64,000 nt of DNA, taken from the NCBI GenBank assembly GCA_039934415.1, contig JBDTME010000001.1, forward strand, positions 265,417 through 329,416, given 5' to 3'. Position numbers and translations under genes: made by a program. Positions 4,466-54,955 of this stretch are shown here, piece after piece. The stretch is from Patescibacteria group bacterium. Lineage in GTDB: Bacteria > Patescibacteriota > Microgenomatia > UBA1400 > PJMF01. Under the pieces are notes generated by a model that was not told where the DNA came from, did not search any database, and saw only the letters and a list, made by a program, of their open reading frames with translations. How positions within the stretch are numbered: the stretch's first letter is position 1; each line of letters starts with the position of its first letter.

Positions 4466-5227
4466 AATATGCCAGAAAAAGGAAGATCCAATAACGGTAA
4501 AGATACTAAGGAATACGCTAGACTCTCGAAACAGCGTGAACTTTACACACAATCGTATGGGACTGAGATTGATCTATTTACCACTGTTATCATTGACCGT
4601 GTAGAAGAAGGTTTTGAAGATTACGTACTTTCAAGAGAAGATAAAGACGCAATCAAGTCTTTAATTGTTGCATGGGTGCAAGAGAATAGAAAAGGTTCAA
4701 GCTTGAAAAAATATAGTCAAGACGACTACAAGTCCACAGAACTGAGAGATGAGTTACGAGGTGAATTGCAGCCTTTTTTTCCTGGAAAAGATGCTTCTTT
4801 TTTTTCTAAGGTGATAAGTGAAATCATGACAAAATATGAAAAATTGGCTACCTTGGAAGAACAAATTGAGACCTCTCCAGTAGTTCAAAAGAAACCAAAT
4901 AAATTCGTTCAGGAAATTAATATAGATGAAAAAATTGATGCAGAAGAAATCTATAAGCTTTTTCTGGCGTTCAAGGCAAGACTGCTTGATCCAAACCGTG
5001 GTGCAGGCGATGCTGCAAGTTCACAAGAGAAAAAAAGACTAGAAAGTCTATTAGCCTCGCAAAGAACAGGTCTTGACGCTCTGTCAACTTTATTTGAAGA
5101 TAATAACGCTACATGGTCGAGCGCGGCAGCTGGTAGCAAAGCCACAATAGGCATCATGCAAAGACTACTAGCAAGTTTTAGACAAGAACTCAAAAGAGTG
5201 AAGAAATCGTCTGATGACAATCTTTAG
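4466..5227 (+). CDS. hypothetical charged/coiled-coil protein
   Basis: The track ORF 4385-5227 starts inside tRNA-Cys, so the internal Met at 4466 (MPEKGRSNNG...) is more plausible. No recognisable domain. Confidence 0.45.
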   Translation, partial: NMPEKGRSNNGKDTKEYARLSKQRELYTQSYGTEIDLFTTVIIDRVEEGFEDYVLSREDKDAIKSLIVAWVQENRKGSSLKKYSQDDYKSTELRDELRGELQPFFPGKDASFFSKVISEIMTKYEKLATLEEQIETSPVVQKKPNKFVQEINIDEKIDAEEIYKLFLAFKARLLDPNRGAGDAASSQEKKRLESLLASQRTGLDALSTLFEDNNATWSSAAAGSKATIGIMQRLLASFRQELKRVKKSSDDNL

Positions 5228-5462
5228 CTAATAAAATTTCGGACATTTGAGAAAAAATATTGGAATTTATCCTTCATTTTCATCGGGAGCTTCCTGCTAC
5301 CAAGCAAAATCGTTAATACTCGTCTCTATAGTTTCACGCAATACAGCCTGATTTGCATCACCAGGTGAAACAAATGATTTCGACAACCATTTTTGTGTTT
5401 CTAGACTATCTGTGTTTCCTCTCAACCGAGACTTCTCGCCCGTCTGGTGATAAAATAGCTTT

Positions 5463-6644
5463 GTGAAAACTACCAGCCCGACCTACTATATCCATACCTT
5501 TGGTTGCCAATCCAACAAAAGCGATTCTGAACGTATTGCTGGAGATTATGAGGCTCGAGGGTATAAAGAGTCTCTTACTTGGCAAAAAGCCGATGAAATC
5601 GTCGTTAATACCTGTGCAATTCGAAAAAGAGCCGAAGACCGAGCCGTTGGGTTTTTACTCAACGTAGTCAAACATTTCGAGGATAGAAAACAAAAGAAAC
5701 CAAAACTTATTCTGACTGGCTGCATGACTCATCACGGCCACTCCACATTGTATGAGTTGATGCCGATGATCGATGAGATTCTCCCCATCAATGAAGTAGG
5801 ATTTAATCAGGCAGCAATTCGTAAAGATTCACCTCAAACAAATGGAACAAAACATGCTTGGGTACCGATCTCCGCAGGGTGCAACTCATTCTGTACTTTC
5901 TGTATTGTCCCTTACTCTCGCGGTCGTGAACAATCTCGCTCGTTTGAATCAATTATGGAGGAAGTTGAGCACCTAGTCGATCAAGGCTATGAAGAAATCA
6001 CTTTACTCGGACAAAACGTTAACTCTTGGGGTTTGGAAAAAATTGGAGTTGGTCTGCGAAAAATGATGTTGTCGAGTGAAACCTTCTCTCTTAAAGATAT
6101 TCCTTCAAACGTCTCACAATATGAGAAACCAAATGGAGTTCCGCCGTTCGTCCGTTTGTTACAAGCCGTATCAGCACTCCCACAAATCAAAATCGTTCGA
6201 TTTATCTCAGCTAATCCATGGGATTTCCATGATGAGCTTATTGAAGAAATCGGTCGCAATAAAAAGCTTGATCGCTACATTCATTTGCCAATCCAATCTG
6301 GCAGCAACTCGATGTTAAAGAAAATGAATCGTGGATATACTCGTGAAAACTATCTAGAGCTTGTTCGTAAATTAAAATCAGTCGATTCGGAAATAGTGTT
6401 AGGTACCGACATTATAGTAGGATTTCCTGGTGAAACCTCAGAAGAGTTTGAACAAACAGTTGATCTTGCAAAACAAGTAAACTGGAAAGCTGGCTTTGTA
6501 GCTCAGTACTCTCCTCGTCCAGGCACTGCAGCCTGGAAACTCTATCAGGATGACATCTCTCCACAAATTAAAAAACAACGCTGGGAAATTCTTGATCAAA
6601 TCATAAATAAAGATAATTTATCGATCAGACCAAAGATTGTATGA
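5463..6644 (+). CDS. miaB: MiaB-like tRNA methylthiotransferase (radical SAM MTTase) lacking a TRAM domain
   Basis: GTG start. It has the MTTase N-domain HTFGCQSN and the radical SAM motif SAGCNSFCTFCIVPYSRGRE. The protein ends shortly after the radical SAM core with no C-terminal TRAM. Confidence 0.8.
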   Translation: MKTTSPTYYIHTFGCQSNKSDSERIAGDYEARGYKESLTWQKADEIVVNTCAIRKRAEDRAVGFLLNVVKHFEDRKQKKPKLILTGCMTHHGHSTLYELMPMIDEILPINEVGFNQAAIRKDSPQTNGTKHAWVPISAGCNSFCTFCIVPYSRGREQSRSFESIMEEVEHLVDQGYEEITLLGQNVNSWGLEKIGVGLRKMMLSSETFSLKDIPSNVSQYEKPNGVPPFVRLLQAVSALPQIKIVRFISANPWDFHDELIEEIGRNKKLDRYIHLPIQSGSNSMLKKMNRGYTRENYLELVRKLKSVDSEIVLGTDIIVGFPGETSEEFEQTVDLAKQVNWKAGFVAQYSPRPGTAAWKLYQDDISPQIKKQRWEILDQIINKDNLSIRPKIV

Positions 6645-19642: not shown

Positions 19643-20747
19643 GGATTTACTTTCACTCGCTATTATTATTGTCGTTTTGATCGCTGGCTTCGGTGCTCTA
19701 ATTTTTGTACTTAAAAAAACTTTGACGCCTCAAAATCAGGAGCAAAATTTAGAAGCGATGGTCAACAAAGTCTTCGGTCTGACTGCGAATCAGCTCGCTC
19801 AACAAAGTAAGCAATTATTGAGTGCAGAAAAAGAAGTGATTCAAACTGATTTGATGAATAAAGAACGTTCAATCCAGAAAATGGTCGAGCAAATTAAAAC
19901 AGAAATTGATGAGCGGCAAAAGGAGATTCGAGCACTAGAACAAGATCGGAATAAATCATATGCCTCAATCAAAGAATCGATAGAGCAGCACAGGGAAATT
20001 ACTAAGGAGTTAAAAACGACGACAGACTCTCTTGCGAAGGTATTGTCTAATAATCAACAACGTGGCGAGTGGGGCGAACGTATTATTGAAGATTTATTAC
20101 AGTCCTCCGGCTTTGTGGAAGGCGTTCATTATGTTCGTCAGGCAAAACTCGGCGCAGGTTCTGATCGACCAGATATTACATTGATGTTGCCGAATAAACG
20201 AGTCGTTCCCGTGGATGTAAAATTCCCATACTCTGAAATGCAAAAAATGGTCACGACTGATTCAAAACAACAAAAAGAAATTCATGAAAAACAGTTCGCC
20301 ATAGACGTCAAACAAAAGATTAAAAAGGTCGCGTTGTACATTCGTCCGGAAGACGACACTCTCGATTACGCCATTTTGTTCGTACCAAATGAGATGGTCT
20401 TTTCATTCATTAATCAAAAATATCCTGAACTCATTTCTGAAGCAATTCGGATGCGCGTGATGATCGTCTCACCATTCACATTTTTAATTGTGGCGCGAAC
20501 AATCATGGAAAGTTATCGCAACTTCATGATGGAGAGTAATCTGCGTTCCATTGTCAAACAAATCGGTGAGTTCGCCAAAGAATGGGAAATGTTTATCGAT
20601 GAATTTGACACTTTTGGTAAAAACATTGGAAAACTAGACGAAAGCTATCACAAAATTCGAGATACCAGACACAAACAAATGAGTAGAAAAATCGAACACA
20701 TCGAGAAGTTTAAACATGGTGATGAGAAGGCTTCATTGAATCAGTGA
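19641..20747 (+). CDS. rmuC: DNA recombination protein RmuC
   Basis: N-terminal TM helix, coiled coil and RmuC C-domain motifs RPDITLMLPNKRVVPVDVKFPY and DYAILFVPNEMVF. Confidence 0.8.
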   Translation: MDLLSLAIIIVVLIAGFGALIFVLKKTLTPQNQEQNLEAMVNKVFGLTANQLAQQSKQLLSAEKEVIQTDLMNKERSIQKMVEQIKTEIDERQKEIRALEQDRNKSYASIKESIEQHREITKELKTTTDSLAKVLSNNQQRGEWGERIIEDLLQSSGFVEGVHYVRQAKLGAGSDRPDITLMLPNKRVVPVDVKFPYSEMQKMVTTDSKQQKEIHEKQFAIDVKQKIKKVALYIRPEDDTLDYAILFVPNEMVFSFINQKYPELISEAIRMRVMIVSPFTFLIVARTIMESYRNFMMESNLRSIVKQIGEFAKEWEMFIDEFDTFGKNIGKLDESYHKIRDTRHKQMSRKIEHIEKFKHGDEKASLNQ

Positions 20748-22537: not shown

Positions 22538-23209
22538 ATGCGCGTAGACGTTTTGGTCTTTGACCATTCAAAATTCGCCTTCGCTGCCCTCAAAGCTTTT
22601 CTCATCCAATATGGGTATACAGTCGTTCTTGCTTCAAATCTTGCTGAAGCACAACGTAAAATGAACAATCGAGTATTCGACTTGGTCATTGTTCAAGAAA
22701 CCATCCGACAAGCAGAAATCTTGGAATTGAACTCATATTTAAAAGACGTCCATGCCACGTGTTATCTTCTAGTACTGATGAAAAATTTCAGTGTTAACCA
22801 ACGCATCGAAGTTTTGGAAGCAGGAGCAGATGATTGCTTGAGTCTCCCCTATCATCCCAAAGAATTGCTGCTCAAAATGGAAAAACTCCTCCAACATAAA
22901 CACGCCATTCGAGAAAATGTCATCAAAACTTCCAAGTATGAACTCAACGTCATATCCGGAGATTTACTTTGTCCTTGGGGAACTATTTGGCTCCGCAAAA
23001 AAGAGTTCATGATCATGTCGATGTTGCTACAACAAAAAAATCGTGTCGTATCAAAAGAACAATTGATTGAACGTATTTGGAGTCAAGAAGAAATACCACA
23101 ACTCTCAACCATCGACGTTCACATCCGCCGCATCCGCGAAAAAATTAAAGACGCCGAAAAAAACATCATCAAAACAGCACATGGAGTTGGGTATATGTTT
23201 TGCGAGTGA
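22538..23209 (+). CDS. atypical OmpR/PhoB-family response regulator (pseudo-receiver plus winged helix)
   Basis: The receiver-like domain aligns to OmpR, but all four phosphorylation residues are substituted: DD to DH, D55 to Q (FDLVIVQE), T83 to M and K105 to L. The C-terminal winged helix (TIDVHIRRIREKI...AHGVGYMF) is intact. The start is taken at MRVDVLVFD. Confidence 0.7.
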   Translation: MRVDVLVFDHSKFAFAALKAFLIQYGYTVVLASNLAEAQRKMNNRVFDLVIVQETIRQAEILELNSYLKDVHATCYLLVLMKNFSVNQRIEVLEAGADDCLSLPYHPKELLLKMEKLLQHKHAIRENVIKTSKYELNVISGDLLCPWGTIWLRKKEFMIMSMLLQQKNRVVSKEQLIERIWSQEEIPQLSTIDVHIRRIREKIKDAEKNIIKTAHGVGYMFCE

Positions 23210-23277
23210 AAATATTTGTCGGGGTGATGCACTTTCTTTCGAACCAATTTTACTTTGGCTAACAAATTTAATGCAAG
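23131..23277. repeat. copy A of a divergent duplicated segment of about 147 bp (3' end of the regulator gene plus downstream)
   Basis: It aligns at roughly 85% identity, by eye, with 27972-28118. Confidence 0.6.
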
Positions 23278-23303
23278 CCTACCAGAACTTAGAAAAGCAG
23301 TGA

Positions 23304-23529
23304 TCAGTCTTCGAAAACATCAAGAGATTTTATCCCTAATGCCTTCATGATCTTATTTAGCTTCTCAAATGAAGGATTTTCCTCACCTCTTTCGATTCGA
23401 GCATAGTAATTTACATTTATGCCTGAGGATCCAGCCACTTCAACCTGAGCGAGCTCAGCTTTTTTTTCTAGCCAATTTGAGCTTCGTACCCAATTCTTTT
23501 CTCACTTGATCGACTTTTGCGCTAGCCAT
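23304..23529 (-). pseudogene. XRE-family HTH regulator paralogue, frameshifted in a poly-A run
   Basis: Minus-strand translation gives MASAKVDQVRKELGTKLKLARKK and then an early stop. One extra A in an A8 run restores ELAQVEVAGSSGINVNYYARIERGEENPSFEKLNKIMKALGIKSLDV, which is about 75% similar to the intact XRE gene at 29061-29306. Confidence 0.55.
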
Positions 23530-23606
23530 ATATTGATAGTATAGCAGTTGTTTTCAACTTCAACGTTAAATGTACAAATGTTATTCGGTGTTGATTAGTG
23601 ACTTTG

Positions 23607-25640
23607 CTATTCCAGCATGTCAGGAAACATCGCATAGAGTCTCTCAAAGTTTTTGTCGGCGTAAGCTCCAACCATGACTCCAAACCATTTTCTCAAGTCC
23701 TGTTGTACAGTCTCAGAGAGAGTATCAAAAGGAATTGGGCCATCAAGCAACTCCCGTGGTAGAACGCCTCGCAACTGCCCAAATGGGGTAAAGCCTAATG
23801 GGCCATCATTTCCTTTTTGTTTTCCCACAAAACTAAAGGATTCTTCTTTTCCCGTTAGTTTCCCCGCAAAGCTAAGTAGATGTTTTCCAGATCTGATTTC
23901 AAGAATATATAATTGCCTGTTCTTAGGCCTATCTGCAGTGGTTTCATCTATTACAATGTTTACCATGGTATTGTTCGGCAACTTCTCTTTCTTTAAAATT
24001 AGAAAATCATCGATGACTAACGCATCTAGATTCATGCTTAAAAAACTTCTTATGGCGTCATCAGGGGTTTCAACAATTGGTTCACCTGCACCGTTGAATG
24101 AAGTATTTAAAAGTACGGGAACACCTGTCCGTTTGTAAAATGCTTCTACTACATTGTAGTATCGCTCATCTTGATCTTCTCTTATGGTCTGGATACGAGC
24201 CGTGCCGTCAATGTGTGTAACTGCAGGAATAATGTCCTGTTTGTCGGTCAAAACGTCGGCAACAATCAACATAAACGGACTGGGCACGTTTAAATCAAAA
24301 TATTCTGAAGCAAGTTGCTCCAAAATAACCGGAGCAAACGGACGATACCACTCCCTATGTTTGACCTCAAAGTTAATATAATCACGCATGTTTGGATCTC
24401 TTGGGTCAGCCAGAATACTACGGTGTCCTAATGCACGAGGGCCAATTTCGCTTCCTCCGTTATACCAACCGATGACTTCTCCACCTGCAATTCTCTTTGC
24501 TACTTCGCGATATAAATTTACCTCAGCGAATGGAATAGCAACAATTTGATCCTCATTGCGTGAAAGCGCTTCCAATACTTTTTCTTTACTATAGACAGGT
24601 CCCAAGTATGCCGTATCCATTTGAGTATCGACATCAAGTCCTCGATTTTTTATATCTACCATGAGCTTACCAATTGCTTGCCCATCGTCACCAGAAGCAG
24701 GGAAGACGTAAATGTCTTCAAATATTCCCGATTTTAAGATCTTTCCATTTACAACACTGTTGAGCGCCACACCACCTGCCAAGCATAAATGATCACTTCC
24801 TGTGAGGAGTTTTGCTCTTCGAGTGAGGCCCAACATGATTTCTTCTAAAATGTCTTGTCCAGCATAAGCCGTATCCATATCATCTTTTGATACATCTTCA
24901 CTTTTTTTCTTTAAACTGTGACCACGTAGCTGCATAAACTCGTCCCAGATCTCCTGGATTTCTGGTGGTTGTGGTTGCCATCCAAACTGTGTGGGACCAA
25001 AGGTGTTTCCAAAAATTGCGAGAATGAAATTGGGATCAATGTAATAACTCCCATCTGGATTGCTGTAGGCAAATTTCTTGAAAAACTCAAGATATTTTGA
25101 AGGCTCACCATAGGGAGCAAGCCCTATGGTTTTTCCTTCTTCGTGTAATTCTTGCATTCCAGATAATGCTCCTATTGCCGTATAAAAATGTCCGATTGAT
25201 TGAGGGGCAAATATTCCATCTGCAAGATATGGCGCCTCAATAAGCGATAATGAGTCATTACTTCCTTTCCATAATGATGTTGATGCTCGTTTTCCAAAAT
25301 CAGGACCTTGACCGTCAACAATCACAACCGCAGCGTCTTTGAAAGTTGAAGCATAAAACGCGCTTGCAGCATGGTAGAGATGATGGTTATCGTCCTCAAG
25401 GCCGTTGCTCTGATTCACAAAGTGATCATCAGGGCTGCCAAACACTACATCTGAAGCGTCAAAATAATTCTTTAGATGATCGTACGCGAGCCTTGAATTC
25501 CAACTGTGTTTGAAGCGATCTCCAACCCTTTCTGCGGCGAGATCAACAATCTGTCCATTGGACAAGAGCATGGCAACAGCCCCATCGTGCCAAGTTGTGG
25601 CGTGACTATGAATGATTGTTTTATTTTCTTGCTTACTCAT
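23607..25640 (-). CDS. NodU/CmcH/TobZ-family carbamoyltransferase
   Basis: Kae1/TsaD-like N-domain (IIHSHATTWHDGAVAML...) followed by a carbamoyltransferase C-domain. The start is taken at MSKQENK, whose ATG overlaps the upstream stop (ATGA). Confidence 0.75.
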   Translation of the reverse strand: MSKQENKTIIHSHATTWHDGAVAMLLSNGQIVDLAAERVGDRFKHSWNSRLAYDHLKNYFDASDVVFGSPDDHFVNQSNGLEDDNHHLYHAASAFYASTFKDAAVVIVDGQGPDFGKRASTSLWKGSNDSLSLIEAPYLADGIFAPQSIGHFYTAIGALSGMQELHEEGKTIGLAPYGEPSKYLEFFKKFAYSNPDGSYYIDPNFILAIFGNTFGPTQFGWQPQPPEIQEIWDEFMQLRGHSLKKKSEDVSKDDMDTAYAGQDILEEIMLGLTRRAKLLTGSDHLCLAGGVALNSVVNGKILKSGIFEDIYVFPASGDDGQAIGKLMVDIKNRGLDVDTQMDTAYLGPVYSKEKVLEALSRNEDQIVAIPFAEVNLYREVAKRIAGGEVIGWYNGGSEIGPRALGHRSILADPRDPNMRDYINFEVKHREWYRPFAPVILEQLASEYFDLNVPSPFMLIVADVLTDKQDIIPAVTHIDGTARIQTIREDQDERYYNVVEAFYKRTGVPVLLNTSFNGAGEPIVETPDDAIRSFLSMNLDALVIDDFLILKKEKLPNNTMVNIVIDETTADRPKNRQLYILEIRSGKHLLSFAGKLTGKEESFSFVGKQKGNDGPLGFTPFGQLRGVLPRELLDGPIPFDTLSETVQQDLRKWFGVMVGAYADKNFERLYAMFPDMLE

Positions 25641-26371
25641 ACAATTCCAAGTTCTTTCCGCATTCTTTTCATCTGTTCCAAATCTTCTTTTTTTAATTCC
25701 ATCTTTTGAAAAACGTTTTCCTTCAGACCCGTCGATTGCTCTCTCCCATCTGGAAAGAAAACTGCACTGCACCCTAGATATTTAAAGCCCGACTTCTCAA
25801 TACCTGATCGGTTCGCAAATACGGTTACCATCTGATTTTCAAGTGCTCTTGCTTTTGTAATCGTTCGCAAGAAGTCTACACTGACTGTTGCACTGACTAA
25901 CAAGAGATCTGCTTCCTGTGATAGTGCTTTTCGTGCCATCAGTGGATCGAGGACATCCAAACAGATACAGGCAACAAAAGAAAGGTTTTTATATCGCAGA
26001 ATATGAGCATGGCTACTACCAGGCCTGAAGGTTTTTTTCTCCTGTGAATACAACTTTCTCTTATCGCAAGCCCTGGTAATTATACCATTGCTAATATAGT
26101 ACGACCTATTTGCAACATAATTTCCCGACGAAATCGGGAGGCTACCAATGAAAGCTAGTTCATTTTTCTTCGAAAAATCCGTTAGTTTCTTGAGGAAGAG
26201 TGGTAGTTTTTTTTGCTCGAGTAGACTGTAATCAAAGTAACTTTGGAGAAAGAGCTCTGGCAAGACAATAAGGCAATTTCTTTCTCTTTTGAGCGAAGAA
26301 ATGACGAAATCGATATTTTCCTCAGCTGTTCTCTCCTGAGGAGAAAATTGGAAAAAACCAATGGAGATCAT
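25637..26371 (-). CDS. carbon-nitrogen hydrolase (nitrilase superfamily)
   Basis: 244 aa with Glu in LPELF, Lys in CDKRKLY and Cys in ACICLD in the expected order of the E-K-C triad. Confidence 0.7.
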   Translation of the reverse strand: MISIGFFQFSPQERTAEENIDFVISSLKRERNCLIVLPELFLQSYFDYSLLEQKKLPLFLKKLTDFSKKNELAFIGSLPISSGNYVANRSYYISNGIITRACDKRKLYSQEKKTFRPGSSHAHILRYKNLSFVACICLDVLDPLMARKALSQEADLLLVSATVSVDFLRTITKARALENQMVTVFANRSGIEKSGFKYLGCSAVFFPDGREQSTGLKENVFQKMELKKEDLEQMKRMRKELGIV

Positions 26372-26380
26372 AATGTCCTC

Positions 26381-27388
26381 TCAAAAATCCAAGCCCGAAA
26401 CGGCGCCAGCTTTTTTTGAAGACCAAGGGTGCTTAACCTCAGAAATCACAATAGAGTCTTGGATGAAACCTTCCCACTCTGGCGTGACCTGGCGACCAGT
26501 AACAACTACTTGTGTCGAGGACTCTCTTGCAAGAGCTAAAAGCTCTTGAACAGTTTCTAGCTCAAGGAGTGGGTAAGGAAGGTAAGACATAACTTCTTTT
26601 AAGGTATCGACAAACTCATCAAGAACAATGACGGTATATTCTCCCGTTGCTATCAGTTTCTTAGCCAATTCAACGCCCTCCACTGCCTTTTCTCGATGCT
26701 CTACCTCTTCTGTCACTCTATCCATATTAGGAGAACCTACAAATCCTGCTCCTGTTGGATGAAAAGAAAGTTGATTGGGGTTATACATCGCATCTGGAAA
26801 GTTATGCTCATTGATTGCCCAAGTCAGAGCTCCTGATTTCTTCTCTTTGAACCATTGAATAACTGCGCCTCTCCCTCCTTCTAAAACTGACTCCATGGCA
26901 ATCCCCAAAGCAGTCGTCGTCTTTCCTTTCCCAGATCCAGTAATTCCGATAACACCACTTTCACGAATTCTATTTCGTGTAAAACCAGAAATAAGGTCGT
27001 ATTCTTTTGGATCAGGATTTGCATCAACAGTCATAACATAGCTTTTTCCAAGCACAGATGGACTATTACGTATTGTCTTATTGACGTCAGAATTGCTATA
27101 CAAACTTACCACGAGATCAAATTTACCCTTTTGGCTCTGTTGTGCAGTTTCAAACTGTTCAATAGAAATAACATTGAGTAATTCTGGAGCTTCTAATTCT
27201 GTATGAAGTTGTTGAAAGATTCGCTGCCTATCTGGAGGAGCTATCACAAGAATGTTCCATCCTTTACCAATTGCTCGTACAAGACTTCCAAGCACTGCGT
27301 ACGAGGTATCTGAGCCAGTATAAGCGTACTCTAGCCTATTGGCCTTCTCCTGTTCTCTTTGTTCGGGTGTATATCTTCTCTCTGTCAT
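26381..27388 (-). CDS. two-domain protein: unknown N-terminal domain fused to a CobA/CobO/BtuR-like P-loop adenosyltransferase domain
   Basis: The C-terminal 185 aa carry GSGKGKTTTALGIAMESV...AVIQWFK, ...YTVIVLDEF, ...VVVTGRQVTPEW and ...KHPW, matching the ATP:corrinoid adenosyltransferase CobA family. The N-terminal 150 aa have no match. Confidence 0.6.
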   Translation of the reverse strand: MTERRYTPEQREQEKANRLEYAYTGSDTSYAVLGSLVRAIGKGWNILVIAPPDRQRIFQQLHTELEAPELLNVISIEQFETAQQSQKGKFDLVVSLYSNSDVNKTIRNSPSVLGKSYVMTVDANPDPKEYDLISGFTRNRIRESGVIGITGSGKGKTTTALGIAMESVLEGGRGAVIQWFKEKKSGALTWAINEHNFPDAMYNPNQLSFHPTGAGFVGSPNMDRVTEEVEHREKAVEGVELAKKLIATGEYTVIVLDEFVDTLKEVMSYLPYPLLELETVQELLALARESSTQVVVTGRQVTPEWEGFIQDSIVISEVKHPWSSKKAGAVSGLDF

Positions 27389-27520
27389 AATTACTGAGAT
27401 TGTATCAGAGGTTTAGTAGAGCGTGGTGCAAAACTAGAAATAGACTGAATTGACAAATAAAAACGCAGCTAGCAAGCTAAAAGCAGCGATACTACTAGCT
27501 TTTTGAAAGGCCAGCTGCAT

Positions 27521-27970
27521 ATGAAACTTGTACCAAATCTTCCAAAGAAAGTCCAGTTCCTGAATCAGATTTCATTGTCAGTGAATCAGTTTCTCCACAA
27601 GAGTGATCGGTTTGAAGGTGGCCGGATTGGATATGACAAAGAATTTCTGTTCAACTGGTTACTAATCAAAAAGATGATGCACTTCGATTATCGAACTATT
27701 GGAGAAATGGCAAGTGTTTCCCATTCTACGTTGATTCGAGCCAATCAATTTTTTCTTGATTCAAAGGTCTATTTCAAAATCTTTCATCATTTGCTCAAAG
27801 TAGCATACAAAAAAGGTTTGATTCAAGGGAAGAAAGTCTCGTTAGATAGTTCATTTGTGCAAACATTTTCAAAAAAACAAGAATATGGATCTAGGAAATG
27901 GAATGGCCACAAAGAAAAGTATGGCTTCAAACTGCACGTGCTCATTGATGCCAACACTTCATTTCCGATG
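27521..27970 (+). pseudogene. truncated IS4/IS5-family (DDE_Tnp_1) transposase, N-terminal fragment
   Basis: IS5-type N-domain (YDKEFLFNWLLIKKMMHFDYRTIGEMASVSHSTLIRANQFF) and the first catalytic block KYGFKLHVLIDANTSFP. The transposase then ends and the ORF reads out of frame into the duplicated regulator fragment. Confidence 0.6.
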
Positions 27971-27971
27971 G

Positions 27972-28118
27972 CATCCGCGAAAAAATCAAAGATGCCGAAA
28001 AAACCATCATCAAAACCGCTCATGGAGTTGGGTATATGTTTTGTGAGTGAAAATATTTGTCGGCCTGATGCACTTACTTTCGAACCGCTTTTACTCTGGT
28101 TGACTAATTTAATGCAAG
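27972..28118. repeat. copy B of the duplicated 3' segment of the regulator gene
   Basis: Roughly 85% identical by eye to 23131-23277. The regulator frame including its TGA is conserved but lacks the upstream gene body. Confidence 0.6.
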
Positions 28119-28159
28119 TATATGAAAGCTCTGAATAATTGCTGAATGAAACAATAAGC

Positions 28160-29023
28160 TCACTGATCTATTCTTACCACCACTTCATCGAACACGAAGT
28201 GCACAAATTGTTTGCCGAGCTCAGTCAGAACATATGGTTTCGTGTCTTCAAAAGCAGACTCCAGTGTGCGTGATAGATTGTGAGATCTACCTCTGGCTGC
28301 GCTAGCTTGCCTTATAAATCGCCCATCGCCATCAGTTTCACGAGCCTGTCTGATAACTCCTCCTGTACTTAGGTCACGTATAAGATAACGAAAAAGATCA
28401 GCTTCTGCTGAATCCTCCCGTGGCCTTTCTGTATGTGCCCGATCCCACATATCTCCTCTAGTAATTCCTGGATTACTATAAATGGCTTTAATTACAACAA
28501 AATGAGAATCATGGTAATCTTCAATCCATTTCAAAAAAAGTCTGATTAAATCATCTGGGAAAATGGGAGAGGCTCCAGCTTGCGTGATCAATTTTTTCAC
28601 AAGTTGACGTTTTTCTTCAGTTTCAGATTCGTCCCATTGTCGAAATGCAGATCTTACCAGTGAGAGATAGTCTTCTGATTGAATACGTTCATCAATCTGA
28701 TCTCCGAGTTGGTCAAATCTGGTAAAAATTTCTTGAAGTGTTTTTCCAAGTCGCTCGATTTTAACTTCATGACTTTGTATCCAAAAGCGTAAAAAGTCAT
28801 TGTTTTTATCTTGTTCATATTCACCACTCAGGCTAGCAATTGCACCTATAAAGCCACCAACCCACGGGATTGCCGATAATGTGGCAAGAGTAAAACGGAT
28901 ATATTTTTTCTTACTACCATGAATAAGCCAGTCCACTAAATTTGGTGTAACTGAAGGTTCAGATACTATTACTTCAGTCTCTGAAGTAATAGTATCACTT
29001 TGATTAATCAAGTCATTTACCAT
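28160..29023 (-). CDS. hypothetical protein (one TM-like segment)
   Basis: 287-aa ORF directly downstream of the XRE gene on the same strand. No family recognised. Confidence 0.45.
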   Translation of the reverse strand: MVNDLINQSDTITSETEVIVSEPSVTPNLVDWLIHGSKKKYIRFTLATLSAIPWVGGFIGAIASLSGEYEQDKNNDFLRFWIQSHEVKIERLGKTLQEIFTRFDQLGDQIDERIQSEDYLSLVRSAFRQWDESETEEKRQLVKKLITQAGASPIFPDDLIRLFLKWIEDYHDSHFVVIKAIYSNPGITRGDMWDRAHTERPREDSAEADLFRYLIRDLSTGGVIRQARETDGDGRFIRQASAARGRSHNLSRTLESAFEDTKPYVLTELGKQFVHFVFDEVVVRIDQ

Positions 29024-29060: not shown

Positions 29061-29306
29061 TTAAGACTTTGAAGAAACGTCCAATGACTTTATCTCCAAT
29101 GCTTTCATAATTTTGGTGAGCTTTTCATATGAGGGGTTTTCTTCTCCTCTTTCGATACGAGCATAGTAATTGACATTCACACCTGAGGCTGAAGCAACTT
29201 CTGCCTGAGTAAGCTCTGCTTTTTCTCTGGCTGCTTTGAGTTTTGTACCTAGTTCTTTTCTGCCTTGGTTCACTTTTTTACTAGCCATATGTTGATAGTA
29301 TAACAT
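29061..29306 (-). CDS. XRE-family helix-turn-helix transcriptional regulator
   Basis: 81 aa with LTQAEVASASGVNVNYYARIERGEENPSYEKLTKIMKAL, a Cro/C1-type HTH. Confidence 0.75.
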   Translation of the reverse strand: MLYYQHMASKKVNQGRKELGTKLKAAREKAELTQAEVASASGVNVNYYARIERGEENPSYEKLTKIMKALEIKSLDVSSKS

Positions 29307-29321
29307 TTCTCTAAGTCATAA

Positions 29322-48426: not shown

Positions 48427-49034
48427 GATGTAATAGTATCAGGCTCAACAGCCTCTTTCTTATGCTTTCTATTCGCTAACATCAACTTCACATGCTTTTT
48501 AATATTTTGAAATTCATCGTAAATAATAATTGTACCAGGGACAATAACCAAAATCACCACACCAGGTGGAGTCTTCGCAAAATCAATGACATAGCCAATG
48601 TATGGTATGCCAAATACGTACTTACCAACAATCGAGCCATAATCTGACTTGTCTTTATCATCAATCTGATTAAAATCACCCTTCGTCGTGATAAGTTTCT
48701 TTCCTTCAACCTCTTCAACTTCCAAGATGCGATGAGTAATCAGCGTTTCCGGCTTGGATGGAAACCCAAACGTCACTACATCGCCCTTACTATAGTTAGA
48801 ATCCTGCTTATCAAAAATTAACGAACCAGTCTTAATCTTCGGCTCCATCGAACCCGATTTCACAATCAACATCCTCCAACCAAACACCTCTTCTTTCCCT
48901 GATACATACACCAAAACACCCACCACCAAAACGAGGAATAAAAAGAAAGTTGTAAAAAAAGCCTTTATAAAAGCCAATGCTTTCATTTTTTTCTTTCTGG
49001 ACAAGCTAAAAACTTGATAAATTGCGTGAATCAT
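48423..49034 (-). CDS. sipW: signal peptidase I, SipW/archaeal type
   Basis: KSGSMEP Ser box, TM anchor and a short S26 core. Confidence 0.7.
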   Translation of the reverse strand: MIHAIYQVFSLSRKKKMKALAFIKAFFTTFFLFLVLVVGVLVYVSGKEEVFGWRMLIVKSGSMEPKIKTGSLIFDKQDSNYSKGDVVTFGFPSKPETLITHRILEVEEVEGKKLITTKGDFNQIDDKDKSDYGSIVGKYVFGIPYIGYVIDFAKTPPGVVILVIVPGTIIIYDEFQNIKKHVKLMLANRKHKKEAVEPDTITS

Positions 49035-49065
49035 CGCGACTCACGCAATCAACAAATCTTAAAGA

Positions 49066-49674
49066 TTATGGTGTCGTACCGTTAAATACGAAATCATAAG
49101 TCATGGTTTCTCCTTGAAGTTGATCAGTTGGATCAGCATCATTGATTAAATCCCATGTTGTGAACTTAAGGACTACTCCTTGAGTTGCACCCACACCAAG
49201 TGTGGTTCCAAGATTAATACCTGCTGGGTTTAACCCTTGCCAGGCTAACATAGTCATTGGTCCTGCAATTGAAGCAGAAAGTTCTCCTCCATCAACAACA
49301 CCATTGCTAATCGCATCATTCCAGAGAAATGCCTCTATTTTAATCTCATTTCGCAATGCTGTATTTGCTACAGTTGGAAAGTTATTGAGAGTTAACTTAA
49401 GAGGAACAGTACCATCGTTATAGACTTTTGCTAAATAGTCCTGACTCCACCCTGGATAAATATTTTCAAAATCCACAGTGTTATCAAGAGTTTGAGACAA
49501 ATTGCCTACATCGTTTGTACCTGTAACATCCTGGTACAACTTCAAAGAAGCTGTTCCAGTGCTAAAGGTATTTCCAGTCACGGTTGCGTTTGCAGTAAAA
49601 GCTGCCAAAGACGTTTGAACCATCAAAACAGCCAATAATGTTACTACCACCGTACTTTTTAAAATGTTTTTCAT
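49066..49674 (-). CDS. TasA/camelysin-like SipW-cognate secreted protein
   Basis: Signal peptide, then ANATVTGNTFSTGTASLKL matching the N-F-x-x-G-T-L-D-L motif of TasA/CalY-type proteins. The start is taken at the internal MKNILK. Confidence 0.55.
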   Translation of the reverse strand: MKNILKSTVVVTLLAVLMVQTSLAAFTANATVTGNTFSTGTASLKLYQDVTGTNDVGNLSQTLDNTVDFENIYPGWSQDYLAKVYNDGTVPLKLTLNNFPTVANTALRNEIKIEAFLWNDAISNGVVDGGELSASIAGPMTMLAWQGLNPAGINLGTTLGVGATQGVVLKFTTWDLINDADPTDQLQGETMTYDFVFNGTTP

Positions 49675-49919
49675 GTATGTTTCACCACCTTCCCAAAAGA
49701 CTATTTTTATAACATGGTCAGTTTGACCCAATCCGCACCAGTCACAAGTAACCACTGTGTCTACAGTCAAAGACGAGAGCACTGTAGTTACCTTTTTTGT
49801 GATTTGTGCAGAATTAGTTATAGAGTACTGAAAACACCGGTGTCAAGCGAATATTTTTTTTGCTGTTCGCATTTACTATGCATTCAGATGTATCTGCATA
49901 ATTTAAATTATGGTTAGCT

Positions 49920-50819
49920 CTAAAAAGTTGAAGCTTTAATTTCAAAGTCTTTAAATTCTATATCCATAAAGTCGCTACGAATGCCACCATAGCCTGCATT
50001 CAAAATAGGAATACCTGTAACACTATTTTTACTATCCAAATACTCAAACACTTGACTCCATTCACCTGAAGACGTGGTATCTAGGTAAAACCTTATTCTG
50101 ACAGTTGAGTCGGTTGTATTAACGAGTTCAGACTTTATTCTTAACCAGGTATTTAACGGTAAAAGATTTGGATTTGTATTTCGATCATATTTCCCCGGAA
50201 ATATCTGCTTCTCAGCTAGAGTAAAGTAAATTCCATTTTGTTTCTTTTTGATGATTGCATGTCCATCAACTCTCACACCTAAATAGTACAAATTATTACC
50301 ATCTTGATATCTGTTAAATAGCAAAACACCGTTGGATTGATTACGATTATCACTTGCAGATAAGTTGATCTTATTAATTTTAAAACTTACTTGCTGATAA
50401 AAGTCCTTGTACAATTTTAAATTCACCAAACGCAACATATTTTGAGGATGATAACCATCATCAGTGTCTTTGGGATTGTTCTTGGAATACAACAACCTCC
50501 ATTTATCATTCGTTGGCAGACTTCCTTGTACTGTCTTACAAATACCATTCACTCCATCAACCATACCACCTGAATTCACCCACCATAAAGAACTATAAAA
50601 ACCTTTAACACCTGATTCCTTAATTGAAACAACAGAGTCAAAGCAATCAAGTACTGGAACAGACGTAGGAGTAAATATCACCGATGTTGAGAGTGACAGA
50701 ACTTCAGGATTACTTTGCTTCTTAAGCCTACTAAAAAAATGATTAGCGATTATTACCGCTACTGTAAAAATGGATAAAAAAATTATGAATTTAATACTAA
50801 TTCGTTGAAACATTAACAT
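49920..50819 (-). CDS. membrane-anchored hypothetical protein, last gene of the EPS operon
   Basis: N-terminal TM helix and a predicted beta-rich ectodomain. No family recognised. Confidence 0.4.
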   Translation of the reverse strand: MLMFQRISIKFIIFLSIFTVAVIIANHFFSRLKKQSNPEVLSLSTSVIFTPTSVPVLDCFDSVVSIKESGVKGFYSSLWWVNSGGMVDGVNGICKTVQGSLPTNDKWRLLYSKNNPKDTDDGYHPQNMLRLVNLKLYKDFYQQVSFKINKINLSASDNRNQSNGVLLFNRYQDGNNLYYLGVRVDGHAIIKKKQNGIYFTLAEKQIFPGKYDRNTNPNLLPLNTWLRIKSELVNTTDSTVRIRFYLDTTSSGEWSQVFEYLDSKNSVTGIPILNAGYGGIRSDFMDIEFKDFEIKASTF

Positions 50820-52374
50820 TTTTAATAACTACCTCACTGTTATTTAGAGTTTTGTCCCAAGTTTGAAAACCAATTCCTCCAGTCAACAATGTATTACTCA
50901 CTTTTTTTGCTGAAATGATCTCCGTGCCATTAATGCTACATCCAACACGGTCTTTATTCACTGCCATCTTCAGGGATAGTTCATTCATATTTAGCAGAGA
51001 AATTCTTGTACGCGTCTTCGAGGAGTTTTTAGACTCAGCTAGCTTAATATCCTTTCCCTCGACTCTTTGCCTAATACTTGTATATTTTGAAGTAAAATTA
51101 CAACTTATATAGTTGTTTCCATCTCTGTAGCGAGAAATTAAACTAACGCTCTCTCCTTTCTTTAAATCCACAAACGCTGAGAATAAATAATCTGTCCAAG
51201 CAAGTGTTCCGTCAAGAAAAGTTGAACCACCACTTCGATCCACTGTTGATGCTATAAACAAACTATCATTTTCATGATACAGATCTCCTCTTGTTTTTAC
51301 CCAGCCCTTATTGCTTTTAAAATCATCCTCAAACGGTAATTGTTTTGAAACTCCTATTTCCATTTTGGTCAACAGGTCTTCTTGATTCCAATCAGGACCT
51401 ATCTCAATTCTTTTTACCACAGCAGAACCTGTTGATTCTTTTTCAGCATTAAAATAGTTTTGACTGAACACTTCGTTTTGTTTTAGTTGAACGAAAGACA
51501 TTTTAAAGTTCTTGTTCATAACCTTGGCAATATCGTCTATCGCACTAGGGTTATTTTTTTGTACTTGACCGTAATCTCCAAACGGATATGCAAAACTAGT
51601 AACTTTTGTTTTTAAAACATCTTGAATATCTTTCTTTACGCCTCCTAAATCGGTAGTTATTCTTTGTATATATTCGTCATGCGTTTCAAGTCGATTTTTT
51701 TCAGAAAGCCATAGCTTATTACTGTAAAAATAACCTTTTTCGTTCTGTTCGTTTATATTAAATAAATCGTGACCATTTTTTGAATGTGCTTGAATTTCCC
51801 ATCGTCCGCTCACTAGCATTTTACTTAATTCAACTTTATTCAAATAGTATCTACTTGATTCAAACAAGGAATGATTGCTGATAATAAACATTACTGCTTT
51901 GTATCCAAGAGCATCAAGAATGGGATCCACTGGGTAGTAACTATCTTTTCTTCCATCATCGAATGTCAAAAGAAAAGACTTTTCAGGTAACTCTTTACCA
52001 TTTTTTAAAAAGCCATACAAGTCTTCTAAAGTGATGGTTTCATATCCTTTACTCTTTAAATAGACCATTTGATTTCTAAAGTCATCAATGATGATATTTG
52101 ATGCATCACCTTTTGATATGACACCGTGATATACCAGTACAGGCAATGATTTTGCATAAACAACAGGGTCAGAATTCTTTAAGTACTTCTGATGTTCTGA
52201 AAGTTTAATTTTATAAGAGGGAAGCAGACTTTTGGTTATTAGATCGAGATTTAATTGTTTCAAAAAATCAATTTGATTTATGAAAAAAGCAATTAATATT
52301 ATTTGGGCGCAAACCACTAAAAACAGATAAAAGGACTTTTTTCTTTTGTTTTTTTTTAAATCTATTTTTTTCAC
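50797..52374 (-). CDS. polysaccharide deacetylase (NodB homology domain) with an N-terminal TM helix and a C-terminal extra domain
   Basis: NodB motif TFDDGRKDSYY and H-containing motifs. Confidence 0.6.
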   Translation of the reverse strand: MKKIDLKKNKRKKSFYLFLVVCAQIILIAFFINQIDFLKQLNLDLITKSLLPSYKIKLSEHQKYLKNSDPVVYAKSLPVLVYHGVISKGDASNIIIDDFRNQMVYLKSKGYETITLEDLYGFLKNGKELPEKSFLLTFDDGRKDSYYPVDPILDALGYKAVMFIISNHSLFESSRYYLNKVELSKMLVSGRWEIQAHSKNGHDLFNINEQNEKGYFYSNKLWLSEKNRLETHDEYIQRITTDLGGVKKDIQDVLKTKVTSFAYPFGDYGQVQKNNPSAIDDIAKVMNKNFKMSFVQLKQNEVFSQNYFNAEKESTGSAVVKRIEIGPDWNQEDLLTKMEIGVSKQLPFEDDFKSNKGWVKTRGDLYHENDSLFIASTVDRSGGSTFLDGTLAWTDYLFSAFVDLKKGESVSLISRYRDGNNYISCNFTSKYTSIRQRVEGKDIKLAESKNSSKTRTRISLLNMNELSLKMAVNKDRVGCSINGTEIISAKKVSNTLLTGGIGFQTWDKTLNNSEVVIKNVNVSTN

Positions 52375-52379
52375 GTTTT

Positions 52380-53672
52380 TTATCTAGTACCCCATTTAGA
52401 GTCTCTAAGTGTCAATATAGCCCAAGGTAATTGCCATATTAAAATGACAGAGTAAAACGCAGCGAATACTACTCCAAAAACCCATTTTCTGTCCCTCGTG
52501 TGTATGTAGTAATACAGACCATATACAATAGCCATTAAAATTAACCCGAATAAATATAGCCAGGGAATGGCATCATGTACAAATGGATACCAAATTAAGG
52601 CTCTAATTACAACAACTGGTGCTAGTAAAGGTAATATAACTCCCAAATAAAATGAAAAACTCATAAGTGGGTGTCTCCTCCAGATAAAACTTCCTGCCAT
52701 TAAACTCTCTCTCACCCATGATTTTTTCCATCTCAATTGCTGTTTCATAAATTTCGTGAAACTATTTGGCACTATGGTGTATGACTTTGCCTCTGGCGCA
52801 TATAATGCTTTGTGCCCTCTACGCAACACAAAATTAGTTAAACTTCTGTCATCTCCATAGGTACATTGGATCCCTAAAAATCTTTGGTTAAGCCATTTGT
52901 CTATGACTGGTAATAAATCCTGTCTTCTATACGCAGAACAACAACCAGAACAACAAGTAACACTGTCAAACATAGCCTCAGCAGCTTTGTACGCTTTAAA
53001 TGCTACAAAGTACCTTGCAGATTGCATCTTTGTAATAAAATTTTCATCAGCATTAGCAACAAAAGCGTGTCCTGCGACTGCAGCGACCTTATCATCAAGA
53101 AAGTATTTCACTAACTCCTTTGCTGTCCTTTTTTCAACAAAACTGTCAGAATCAATAAAAATAATGATGTCGTTCTTTGATCTATTTACGGCTTCACCCA
53201 TCCCTTCTCTTTTTCCCTTATTCACTTTCCAATTTACGATTTTTATCTTGACTTTCTTTCTCTTTGCAATTTTTTGAGCCTTTATCATTTCAGCCAGTGT
53301 ATTGTCAGTTGATGCATCATTTACAGCAATAATTTCAAACTTCTTTTTAGGATAATCAATCTGTGAAATCTTAAGAAGGGTCTTTCTTATATTTTCACCC
53401 TCATTGTAAGAAGGTATGCCAAAAGAAATTGTTGGTTGGAAATTTGCATCGAATTTTTCTAGATCTGGCTCGTAAAAATAAGATATGATAAATCTACTCA
53501 GAATATAAAAAGTAACAGCTAAACTGTAACTGCCAAAAAAAATGTTATTATCTATTTCTTGAATTGTTATAAACTTGATGAGAAAAACAATATAGATCGT
53601 GAAAAAGAGAACAATCCATGCGTTGATATTTCTTTCAGTATAAAATTTGTGAATTGCTTTTAATTTTTTCAC
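52380..53672 (-). CDS. processive GT2 polysaccharide synthase (NodC/IcaA/HasA-like)
   Basis: GIPSYNEGENI, AVNDASTDNT, D-x-D and QLRWKKSW (QxxRW) motifs with flanking TM helices. Confidence 0.7.
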   Translation of the reverse strand: MKKLKAIHKFYTERNINAWIVLFFTIYIVFLIKFITIQEIDNNIFFGSYSLAVTFYILSRFIISYFYEPDLEKFDANFQPTISFGIPSYNEGENIRKTLLKISQIDYPKKKFEIIAVNDASTDNTLAEMIKAQKIAKRKKVKIKIVNWKVNKGKREGMGEAVNRSKNDIIIFIDSDSFVEKRTAKELVKYFLDDKVAAVAGHAFVANADENFITKMQSARYFVAFKAYKAAEAMFDSVTCCSGCCSAYRRQDLLPVIDKWLNQRFLGIQCTYGDDRSLTNFVLRRGHKALYAPEAKSYTIVPNSFTKFMKQQLRWKKSWVRESLMAGSFIWRRHPLMSFSFYLGVILPLLAPVVVIRALIWYPFVHDAIPWLYLFGLILMAIVYGLYYYIHTRDRKWVFGVVFAAFYSVILIWQLPWAILTLRDSKWGTR

Positions 53673-54955
53673 TATCGCCCAATTCCAATGTAGAGAATGT
53701 CGGATTCAAGATATCCAATTTTACTCAGGCTGTTTCGTCCGTCGATTATTATTGACACACCAAATTTCTTCAATAAATCTGGTGTGAGTTGCTTAAATTC
53801 CTGATGTGATGTTGTTAATATAACTGCATCAGCACCTTTGAGGGCTTTTTCTATGGATTGAACATTCGATTTCTTTGGCAAATGCGGATCAAAAACTTGA
53901 ACTTTTTTCACACCAATCTCATTCAACTCTTTTATCACTTCGTACGAAGGACTCTCTCGATCATCACCTACATTAGCTTTATATGATAATCCTAAAACTG
54001 CCACTGTAGAGTCTTTGACGTGTATATTTTTTTGCTTTAGTGCTTCTTGTAATTTCGTCACAGTATATCTTGGCATTGCTTCATTCGTTTGACAAGCAAT
54101 TTCCAAAAAAGTGTGCTTAAAATTGTTTTTTCTGGCGTAGTCTATTAAGTAATAAGGATCGACTGGTATACAGTGACCACCTATCCCGCAACCAGGATAA
54201 TGTGCCATAAAGGCAAAGGGCTTAGTGGCAGCGCCATCAATTACATTAACTACATCAATACCCAATTTATCAAAAGACATAGCAAGCTCATTCACAAAAG
54301 CAATATTGACATTTCGAAAAGCATTTTCTACTACCTTGACGGACTCTGCCTCTTTCAGTGTTTGCATCAGCTTTACTTTTCCTGAAATAATCGATTTATA
54401 AAACTGAGCTGCTAAATTAGTACTATTCTTGTCAAAGCCACCCACAACTCTAGGAATATTAGAGACATTCCATTTAGCATCGCCAGGATTAATGCGTTCA
54501 GGACAATGTGCTACATAAAAATCTTCACCAACCTTCAAACCAGACTTTTCAAGAATTGGAATAATTATCTCTTCACAAACTCCGGGGTTAACAGTCGACT
54601 CCAAAATCACTAACTGACCTTTTTGTAAATTCGATGCAATGCTTTCAGCTGCAGCTTCCACAGGACCGTAGTCAGGCAGTCGATTGCTATGAATTGGAGT
54701 TGGTACGCAAATAATAATAATGGATGCTTTTTTTATTTTCTTGACATCTGCTGTGGCATGAACTTTCGCAACCAACATTAATTCTTCTACAAACTTTTCC
54801 TTAAAAGGAGATTCACTTTTATTGATTAGTTTTACTTTTTTTACATCCTTTTCAACACCAATAACTTCATACCCCTTTAGATTAGCCAAAAGTGCCAAAG
54901 GTAAACCAACATAACCTAAACCAATTACAGCAACGACTGGAAACTTTTGAAGCAT
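53672..54955 (-). CDS. nucleotide-sugar dehydrogenase (UDP-GlcNAc/ManNAc/Glc 6-dehydrogenase family)
   Basis: VAVIGLGYVGLPLA Rossmann N-terminus and catalytic GGHCIPVDP. The start is taken at the internal MLQKF rather than the track TTG at 55024. Confidence 0.7.
   Translation of the reverse strand: MLQKFPVVAVIGLGYVGLPLALLANLKGYEVIGVEKDVKKVKLINKSESPFKEKFVEELMLVAKVHATADVKKIKKASIIIICVPTPIHSNRLPDYGPVEAAAESIASNLQKGQLVILESTVNPGVCEEIIIPILEKSGLKVGEDFYVAHCPERINPGDAKWNVSNIPRVVGGFDKNSTNLAAQFYKSIISGKVKLMQTLKEAESVKVVENAFRNVNIAFVNELAMSFDKLGIDVVNVIDGAATKPFAFMAHYPGCGIGGHCIPVDPYYLIDYARKNNFKHTFLEIACQTNEAMPRYTVTKLQEALKQKNIHVKDSTVAVLGLSYKANVGDDRESPSYEVIKELNEIGVKKVQVFDPHLPKKSNVQSIEKALKGADAVILTTSHQEFKQLTPDLLKKFGVSIIIDGRNSLSKIGYLESDILYIGIGR

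Follow-up and report, generated by a model that had tools for sequence, protein, structure and literature searches.

Why would an ultra-small bacterium carry a homologue of a corrinoid adenosyltransferase, an amidase and a carbamoyltransferase side by side on a mobile island? The question is raised by a 64,000-nucleotide (nt) stretch of a 510-kb Patescibacteria contig (JBDTME010000001.1, positions 265,417 to 329,416), hereafter the window. Three consecutive minus-strand genes in this window encode a CobA-type ATP:corrinoid adenosyltransferase homologue with two domains in tandem (gene 1), a nitrilase-superfamily amidase or CN hydrolase (gene 2) and an ATP-dependent carbamoyltransferase of the TobZ/NovN class (gene 3; Table 1). 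Here we show that the conserved core of this arrangement is the pair of CN hydrolase and carbamoyltransferase and not the trio, and that the tandem CobA gene joins it as a third partner only in particular lineages. As a whole, we read the locus as a horizontally mobile, co-transcribed three-enzyme cassette for the carbamoylation of a small molecule, linked to a corrinoid adenosyltransferase homologue, and we give this reading about an even chance of being correct.

A conserved pair of genes with a variable third partner

Gene 2 follows gene 1 after 9 nt, and the ATG of gene 3 (25640–25638) overlaps the TGA of gene 2 (25639–25637) in an ATGA. Genes 2 and 3 are translationally coupled. All of this had been seen in a preliminary description of the window, made from its letters and open reading frames (ORFs), and is reproduced here. 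The protein lengths stated there hold for gene 1 (335 amino acids, aa), whereas the product of gene 3 has 677 and not 678 aa when counted from the ATG (a GTG start would lengthen the ORF to 721 aa). The identical gene order was found again in two other genomes (loci L007 and L016), and because of this recurrence the arrangement is beyond chance.

The CN hydrolase adjoins the carbamoyltransferase in seven of the eight CN-hydrolase loci examined. These are the window and the Patescibacteria-like loci L007, L016 and L099, together with loci in Conexibacter (L100), Actinomadura (L018) and on a Streptomyces linear plasmid (L182). Only in L101 does the hydrolase occur without a carbamoyltransferase, there beside genes for GS-III, Amt and PII. 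As a control, 158 loci with other carbamoyltransferases (30–46% identity) were surveyed, and none of them contained a hydrolase of the gene 2 type or a tandem CobA gene. In the four Patescibacteria-like loci, the window included, the ends of the hydrolase and carbamoyltransferase genes overlap or lie about 10 nt apart, which suggests stoichiometric co-production. None of the papers found by our searches describes the tandem-CobA family, the hydrolase–carbamoyltransferase pair or their linkage.

The tandem CobA gene adjoins the carbamoyltransferase in four of 13 distinct CobA loci. Three of these (window, L007 and L016) have the order CobA, hydrolase, carbamoyltransferase. In the remaining one, L017 (identical to L010) from a Ktedonobacteraceae metagenome-assembled genome (MAG), CobA is divergent from a pair formed by the carbamoyltransferase and a B12-binding radical-SAM gene. 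The carbamoyltransferase-linked CobA copies fall into four clades of the family tree and their flanking contexts all differ, so selection for the linkage is favoured. In Actinomycetota the pair occurs without any CobA gene, and no further gene family is common to the cassette loci. The recurrence of both pair and trio is thus a plain observation, and the earlier view of the trio as the unit stands as far as the trio order goes, which recurs in L007 and L016, but the conserved unit is the pair. CobA belongs to it in Patescibacteria and in the Ktedonobacteraceae MAG as an additional partner outside the core. The survey also bears out the earlier expectation that this is not a conserved syntenic housekeeping locus, as the module recurs in differing contexts.

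The third partner changes with the lineage. Tandem CobA takes this place in the window, in L007 and L016 and, with divergent orientation, in L017; actinomycetes have a 158-aa protein instead, L099 has one of 382 aa, and L019 and L020 have YunG-like proteins. In the actinomycete cassette (L018 9507–12541; L182 11869–14911) the gene for the 158-aa hypothetical protein lies directly upstream of the carbamoyltransferase gene and the CN hydrolase gene is convergent. The 158-aa protein is 67% identical between Actinomadura and the Streptomyces linear plasmid, and a homologue precedes a more distant carbamoyltransferase (L022 2940–3398). The YunG-like proteins (L019 7591–7983, minus strand; L020 2665–3027, plus strand) are small, carry a conserved NCGLASLYL...H motif, share 48% identity with each other and are encoded beside carbamoyltransferases of the gene 3 subfamily that have no hydrolase neighbour. 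Judged by their position, they may be an alternative partner of the carbamoyltransferase. We considered the 382-aa upstream protein of L099 as a divergent CobA and rejected this assignment. In L017 the B12-binding radical-SAM gene (4707–6035) starts 10 nt downstream of the carbamoyltransferase gene, and MetE is encoded next door. The carbamoyltransferase gene of L007 (5014–6684) is publicly called from 5206 (492 aa); the tblastn match is continuous from 5014, about 35 nt into the end of the hydrolase gene, and the annotated start is probably too far downstream.

Hints to the acceptor from the neighbourhoods are mixed. Sugar-nucleotide genes lie downstream of the cassette in L016 (CTP_transf_3, HAD) and L007 (HIT, epimerase, aminotransferase). 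The neighbourhood in L018 is NRPS-like (non-ribosomal peptide synthetase), and nitrogen-related genes occur in L100 (allophanate hydrolase) and in L101 with the neighbours named above.

Gene 3 encodes a carbamoyltransferase of a separate subfamily

All three domain assignments of the preliminary description pass profile searches (Pfam: CobA_CobO_BtuR, CN_hydrolase and Carbam_trans_N/Carbam_trans_C), and the domain identities are established. Gene 3 matches Carbam_trans_N (PF02543; E = 2e-32, 113.5 bits) and Carbam_trans_C (PF16861; E = 8e-69, 231 bits). Among proteins of known structure it matches NovN (5e-80), GdmN (9e-72) and TobZ (5e-69) by sequence. Residues 1–82 do not match positions 1–128 of the Pfam N-domain profile. 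H86, H90, D109, D318 and the motifs GPRALG and RExxRP are invariant in the gene 3 subfamily. The iron ligands of GdmN are H133, H137 and D156 (PMC9633730), and H86, H90 and D109 of gene 3 show the same spacing of 4 and 19 residues. The catalytic residues of gene 3 look intact; in GdmN and TobZ, the conserved ones have their counterparts in the iron ligands and in the YrdC-like site.

With these class III O-carbamoyltransferases (TobZ, NovN and GdmN) gene 3 shares the Kae1-like and YrdC-like architecture and the His-His-Asp-Asp metal site. It differs from them in forming a separate subfamily, in being paired with a CN hydrolase and in lying outside an antibiotic gene cluster here. Members of the subfamily share at least 47% identity and are about 35–40% identical to the other carbamoyltransferase loci, with no sequenced neighbour between 47 and 43%. 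The subfamily occurs on Patescibacteria-like contigs, in the Ktedonobacteraceae MAG, in Actinomycetota and in Bradyrhizobium.

The window protein carries a unique C-terminal extension (Table 1) that no homologue shares; each of them covers about 80% of the query. Searches against Pfam, the PDB and the loci gave no match to the extension, and its sequence is not similar to the tails of GdmN or NovN. In position and size it resembles the dimerisation domain of GdmN (PMC9633730). The extension has an in-frame codon-usage signal like that of real genes, which makes non-coding read-through unlikely. A fused YunG-like or other neighbouring gene was considered as its origin and rejected, since no similarity was found.

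Gene 2 belongs to a small subfamily of nitrilase-like hydrolases

Gene 2 matches the Pfam family CN_hydrolase (PF00795) with E = 5e-16 and 59 bits against a cut-off of 23. Its Glu (LPELF), Lys (DKRKLY) and Cys (CICLD) align with the triad of PH0642 (PDB 1j31), and judging by this alignment the Glu-Lys-Cys triad looks intact. Signature and aligned triad are shared with the Nit, omega-amidase and aliphatic-amidase branch (PH0642; Nesterenkonia amidase, PDB 3hkx), from which gene 2 differs in forming its own small subfamily that is defined by adjacency to the carbamoyltransferase. This subfamily counts 23 representatives among 1.84 billion (E < 1e-30), and every one of them is a stand-alone protein. 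With NCBIfam models, gene 2 scores 46.6 bits at best (cut-off 249), and all ten matches, NadE among them, are far below their thresholds.

Gene 1 encodes two CobA-like domains, one of them degenerate

The Pfam family CobA_CobO_BtuR (PF02572) covers residues 149–335 of gene 1 (E = 1.5e-28, 100.6 bits against a cut-off of 25.7), and the protein has the three-dimensional fold of CobA. Residues 1–148 have no Pfam match even at E ≤ 5. The preliminary description had called this part unrecognisable, which is correct with regard to Pfam; it is not a foreign domain, though, but the CobA/RecA-like fold in a second, degenerate copy whose P-loop is lost. The catalytic motifs of the C-terminal domain are intact. 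The P-loop GxGKGK, W190, E194, F216, D223-R224, LDE, TGR, H320-P321 and GLD are invariant in the family, and across 29 family members G151, G153, K154, G155, K156, L256, D257 and E258 do not vary, in agreement with a CobA-type GxGKGKTT P-loop and a Walker-B-like LDE. W190, E194, F216 and R224 align with W69, E73, F91 and R98 of CobA. The domain also retains the KH and GxD(Y/F) motifs.

CobA forms homodimers of single-domain subunits, each of which caps the site of its partner. For this reason we read gene 1 as a putative covalent pseudo-dimer of an inactive N-terminal and an active C-terminal copy, which would have one active site. It differs from Salmonella CobA/BtuR/CobO (PDB 1g5r, 4hut) in having both CobA-like domains in one chain, the first without a P-loop, and in sharing an operon with non-corrinoid enzymes. 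A precedent for the tandem architecture, as far as profile comparison can tell, is NCBIfam NF005647 (PRK07413), a longer CobA of 382 aa. The C-terminal domain of gene 1 matches the second half of this model (positions 197–348), weakly, at 31 bits against a cut-off of 426, and its N-terminal domain does not match the first half. We found no functional study of NF005647 proteins in the literature.

About 45 clusters have the tandem-CobA architecture, and most are stand-alone genes; at L001/L015, L003, L005, L009, L012, L013 and L014 the gene stands among unrelated genes. In L011 (6416–11753) an operon of three genes is preceded by an AdoCbl-II riboswitch (6416–6495, plus strand; 44.1 bits, gathering score 36.5). 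The first gene encodes a 1135-aa protein without Pfam match, the second a tandem-CobA homologue and the third a 234-aa protein resembling an ECF (energy-coupling factor) S-component. From its gene content this looks like an operon for B12 uptake and adenosylation, and the riboswitch operon is the strongest evidence for corrinoid handling by the tandem-CobA family. The record of L011 is labelled 'Methanosarcinales', an automatic MAG label that may be wrong. On the contig of L015, a LOOT RNA (Rfam RF03000, 94 bits) is found at 20290–20413. A paralogue of gene 1, P0031 (40% identity), is encoded on the same contig as the window at a site that we did not locate. It belongs to a different clade, and gene 1 is therefore an extra, island-borne copy. 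The preliminary description had set the module apart from ordinary metabolism. For gene 1 this holds only in part, because the family is mostly stand-alone and housekeeping-like in context and has one member in an AdoCbl-riboswitch operon, which makes an ordinary role in corrinoid salvage plausible.

The window copy lies on a mobile island

The mobile-island description of the window copy is supported, and its mobility is established. The truncated transposase, the duplicated segments and the XRE genes noted earlier as brackets of the cassette are all confirmed; to these we add a Replic_Relax gene and, at tRNA-Pro, a serine recombinase (Table 1). The cassette lies between two sets of diverged direct repeats: 23130–23294 is repeated at 27971–28135 (86% identity; 3' end of a response-regulator gene) and 23315–23549 at 29075–29308 (78% identity; XRE gene). 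By tblastn, the two parts of the XRE pseudogene are 84% and 73% identical to the intact gene. At 78–86% identity the duplications are old and do not represent a recent target-site duplication. The serine recombinase and tRNA-Pro (31499–33098) are the likely end of the island. No att-type repeat of tRNA-Pro was found elsewhere in the window, and the island limits are not delimited by such a repeat.

A TGATACAAT element lies just 5' of the ATG of gene 1 in the presumed promoter region. Consensus scans returned no promoter-like site in this region (27389–27502), which separates gene 1 from the transposase ORF, and 3' of gene 3 they returned no terminator-like site on the minus strand. Within the operon, minus-strand terminator-like matches are few and not above shuffle expectation.

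Table 1. Features of the cassette and its surroundings, in window coordinates
Feature	Position	Strand	Remarks
Gene 1, tandem-domain CobA-type ATP:corrinoid adenosyltransferase homologue	26381–27388	-	335 aa
Gene 1, N-terminal domain (residues 1–140)	26969–27388	-	degenerate CobA/RecA-like fold without P-loop
Gene 1, C-terminal catalytic CobA domain (residues 141–335)	26384–26968	-	CobA motifs
Gene 2, nitrilase-superfamily amidase	25637–26371	-	244 aa
Gene 3, TobZ/NovN-class ATP-dependent carbamoyltransferase	23607–25640	-	677 aa from ATG
Gene 3, unique C-terminal extension (about residues 551–677)	23610–23990	-	about 125 aa; next to recombination junction
Intergenic stretch 5' of gene 1, presumed operon promoter region	27389–27502	-	
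Truncated DDE transposase ORF fused in frame to copy of response-regulator 3' end	27503–28138	+	DDE_Tnp_1 profile positions 7–51 of 200
Frameshifted XRE pseudogene, diverged copy of 29061–29306	23304–23529	-	two short ORFs split at T-run
Intact XRE-family regulator	29061–29306	-	Pfam HTH_3, E = 6e-15
Replic_Relax family protein of the island	30241–31203	-	Pfam E = 1.3e-10
Large serine recombinase	31499–33079	+	Pfam Resolvase, Recombinase, Zn_ribbon_recom
tRNA-Pro(GGG)	33025–33098	-	overlapped by about 55 nt by serine recombinase ORF

Three ORFs between the transposase and the Replic_Relax gene may be island cargo. One of 287 aa (28160–29023) has no significant Pfam or PADLOC match. The other two, of 218 and 163 aa, overlap on opposite strands (29339–29995 and 29462–29953), are locally richer in GC and have no Pfam match. 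At 49000–55000 the GC content of the window falls to 0.33–0.35 compared with about 0.40 elsewhere. The minus-strand genes of this part include one for a protein with a polysaccharide-deacetylase domain, and it may be a second acquired region.

Discussion

The preliminary description proposed the modification of a small molecule or macromolecule, and that the enzymes modify a small molecule or glycan is still the best general reading of the locus. They may also include the modification/demodification pair that was raised there. Judging by family membership and by analogy with TobZ and GdmN, the YrdC-like domain of gene 3 would use ATP, and presumably carbamoyl phosphate, to form carbamoyl-AMP, and the Kae1-like iron site would then carbamoylate a hydroxyl or amino group of a small molecule or sugar; the mechanism of the class is taken from PMC9633730. 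Two roles appear most likely for gene 2. It could process the same acceptor by de-acylation or de-carbamoylation, or it could feed ammonia or carbamate to the adenylating domain. The latter would resemble glutamine-dependent NAD synthetase (NadE), where a nitrilase-like glutaminase feeds an adenylating domain. The presumed likeness consists in the combination of a nitrilase-superfamily hydrolase with an ATP-dependent adenylate-forming enzyme, whereas here the two are separate polypeptides with no fusion found and the synthetase fold is another one. Gene 1 would most likely adenosylate a salvaged corrinoid with ATP. The substrates, the role of the amidase and the place of gene 1 in the same pathway are what we infer from these family relationships, and that all three genes serve one pathway is a tentative proposal, to which we give somewhat less than an even chance.

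Several observations weigh against the carbamoylation cassette as we read it. We found no pathway logic that joins adenosylcobalamin with carbamoylation and no acceptor or donor substrate. We came upon several loci by way of one of the partners, and the raw co-occurrence fractions (seven of eight and four of 13) carry ascertainment bias and rest on small numbers. The co-phylogeny of the three genes was examined and gave no clear signal either way. In nine of the 13 distinct loci the CobA homologue has only unrelated housekeeping genes around it, and its linkage to the pair could therefore be neutral. No riboswitch was found 5' of the operon, and in the window we saw no B12-dependent enzyme, which agrees with the earlier statement that no other corrinoid metabolism is evident there. 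None of the three proteins reaches an NCBIfam equivalog threshold, though each belongs to a known superfamily. Gene 1 scores 78 bits with the cobA equivalog TIGR00708 (cut-off 167.75) and 88 bits with PRK05986 (cut-off 185), and gene 3 scores 151.7 bits with the NodU equivalog NF041651 (cut-off 1000). For gene 2 no equivalog cut-off of a named nitrilase branch was reached (YafV omega-amidase, Nit1, NadE glutaminase, N-carbamoylputrescine amidase, aliphatic amidase). A Rosetta-stone fusion of hydrolase and carbamoyltransferase was sought and rejected, with no fusion protein among the closest 150 representatives. In the tandem family the position of Salmonella CobA W93 is occupied by Gly or Ser, a further difference from that enzyme, and position 217 by Phe, Tyr or Val. 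Phe91 and Trp93 are critical for four-coordinate cob(II)alamin according to the title of Moore et al. 2012, as cited in PMC5282855.

Among the alternatives, the one that survives best assumes two unrelated functions. Gene 1 would be a second adenosyltransferase for B12 salvage, the pair would decorate a surface glycan or small molecule, and the genes would have come into one operon by hitch-hiking. The prevalence of stand-alone tandem-CobA genes, the paralogue P0031 on the same contig, the occurrence of the pair without CobA in Actinomycetota and in L099 and the sugar-nucleotide genes 3' of the cassette in L016 and L007 would all agree with this. However, the spacing is tight (2–9 nt) and the gene order is kept at only 48–50% protein identity, the linkage turns up in each of four clades and, rearranged, in another phylum, and a partner was present at none of the 158 control loci. 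We regard hitch-hiking as a possible explanation, though clearly not the probable one.

A closer connection of the three enzymes is also conceivable. The pair could act on or depend on a corrinoid in a B12-linked carbamoylation or remodelling route, or the CobA fold could have been recruited for a non-corrinoid substrate of the pair. Taken together, we consider these options unlikely. In a specific version, gene 1 would adenosylate a corrinoid, the amidase would cut a corrinoid amide and the carbamoyltransferase would derivatise a hydroxyl of the corrinoid or of its nucleotide loop. An archaeal route of corrinoid salvage proceeds through CobA and then CbiZ, and the order of adenosyltransferase and amidohydrolase in the cassette mirrors it. 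The riboswitch-linked homologue of L011, the B12-binding radical-SAM gene that follows the carbamoyltransferase in L017 and the nucleotidyltransferase and phosphatase genes that follow the cassette in L016 point in the same direction. Yet gene 2 differs from CbiZ-type cobinamide amidohydrolases: it matches PF00795 only and has no CbiZ match. No CbiB, CobS, CobU, CobY or CobT-like gene was found in any locus, the pair occurs without a corrinoid gene in Actinomycetota, and we know of no carbamoylated corrinoid. Corrinoid salvage or remodelling by all three enzymes is therefore quite improbable.

The third partner differs by lineage and the genes are translationally coupled, features that would also suit a self-sufficient carbamoyl-donor module for cells without carbamoyl-phosphate synthetase. 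The amidase would release ammonia or carbamate, as the NadE precedent and the below-threshold NadE match of gene 2 might suggest, and the CobA-like P-loop protein would be an ATP-dependent activator or kinase, recruited to this role, whose product the carbamoyltransferase would use. Against such a function of gene 1 stand the conserved CobA-specific motifs, including the equivalent of F91, and the riboswitch-linked homologue, which points to corrinoids. Moreover, actinomycetes generally make carbamoyl phosphate and keep the amidase nonetheless. We find it very unlikely that the cassette is such a donor module.

A role in phage defence or another conflict, in which a macromolecule would be modified and de-modified, as hinted at in the preliminary description, is the least supported rival and highly improbable: the integrated element here, the Streptomyces linear plasmid of L182 and the ability of Kae1-fold enzymes to act on tRNA would fit it, but PADLOC-DB v2 has no family match for the three proteins, the flanking 287-aa ORF, the transposase ORF or conserved neighbours in the other cassette loci, no phage or IMG/VR copies of gene 1 or of the gene 3 subfamily were found (viral carbamoyltransferases are distant relatives only), no nuclease, sensor or toxin partner is conserved, and some contexts point to nitrogen metabolism (L100 and L101). 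We therefore rejected the cassette as a defence system. In Actinomadura (L018 12633–17929) the pair adjoins a Trypco2 gene and a gene whose product, a trypsin-STAND protein of 1666 aa, matches PADLOC STAND_TPR (E = 1e-76); this defence-like neighbour is a single case and thus no evidence for a defence role.

The carbamoylation cassette with its variable third partner remains our preferred reading, and its parts have implications of their own. The rare pair of an amidase and a TobZ-type carbamoyltransferase spreads among Patescibacteria, a Ktedonobacteraceae MAG and Actinomycetota, where one copy is plasmid-borne. It presents a clean target for substrate discovery. The idea of a nitrilase-fold partner that feeds an adenylating carbamoyltransferase, as in NadE, can be tested directly in vitro. 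Our literature searches found nothing on B12 adenosylation in Patescibacteria and did not turn up a connection between B12 and carbamoylation. The pseudo-dimeric CobA family and its one riboswitch-controlled, uptake-type operon suggest corrinoid salvage and adenosylation in Patescibacteria-like organisms. If the linkage of the tandem CobA gene to the pair is functional, it would tie B12 chemistry to ATP-dependent carbamoylation, on a mobile cassette in ultra-small Patescibacteria.

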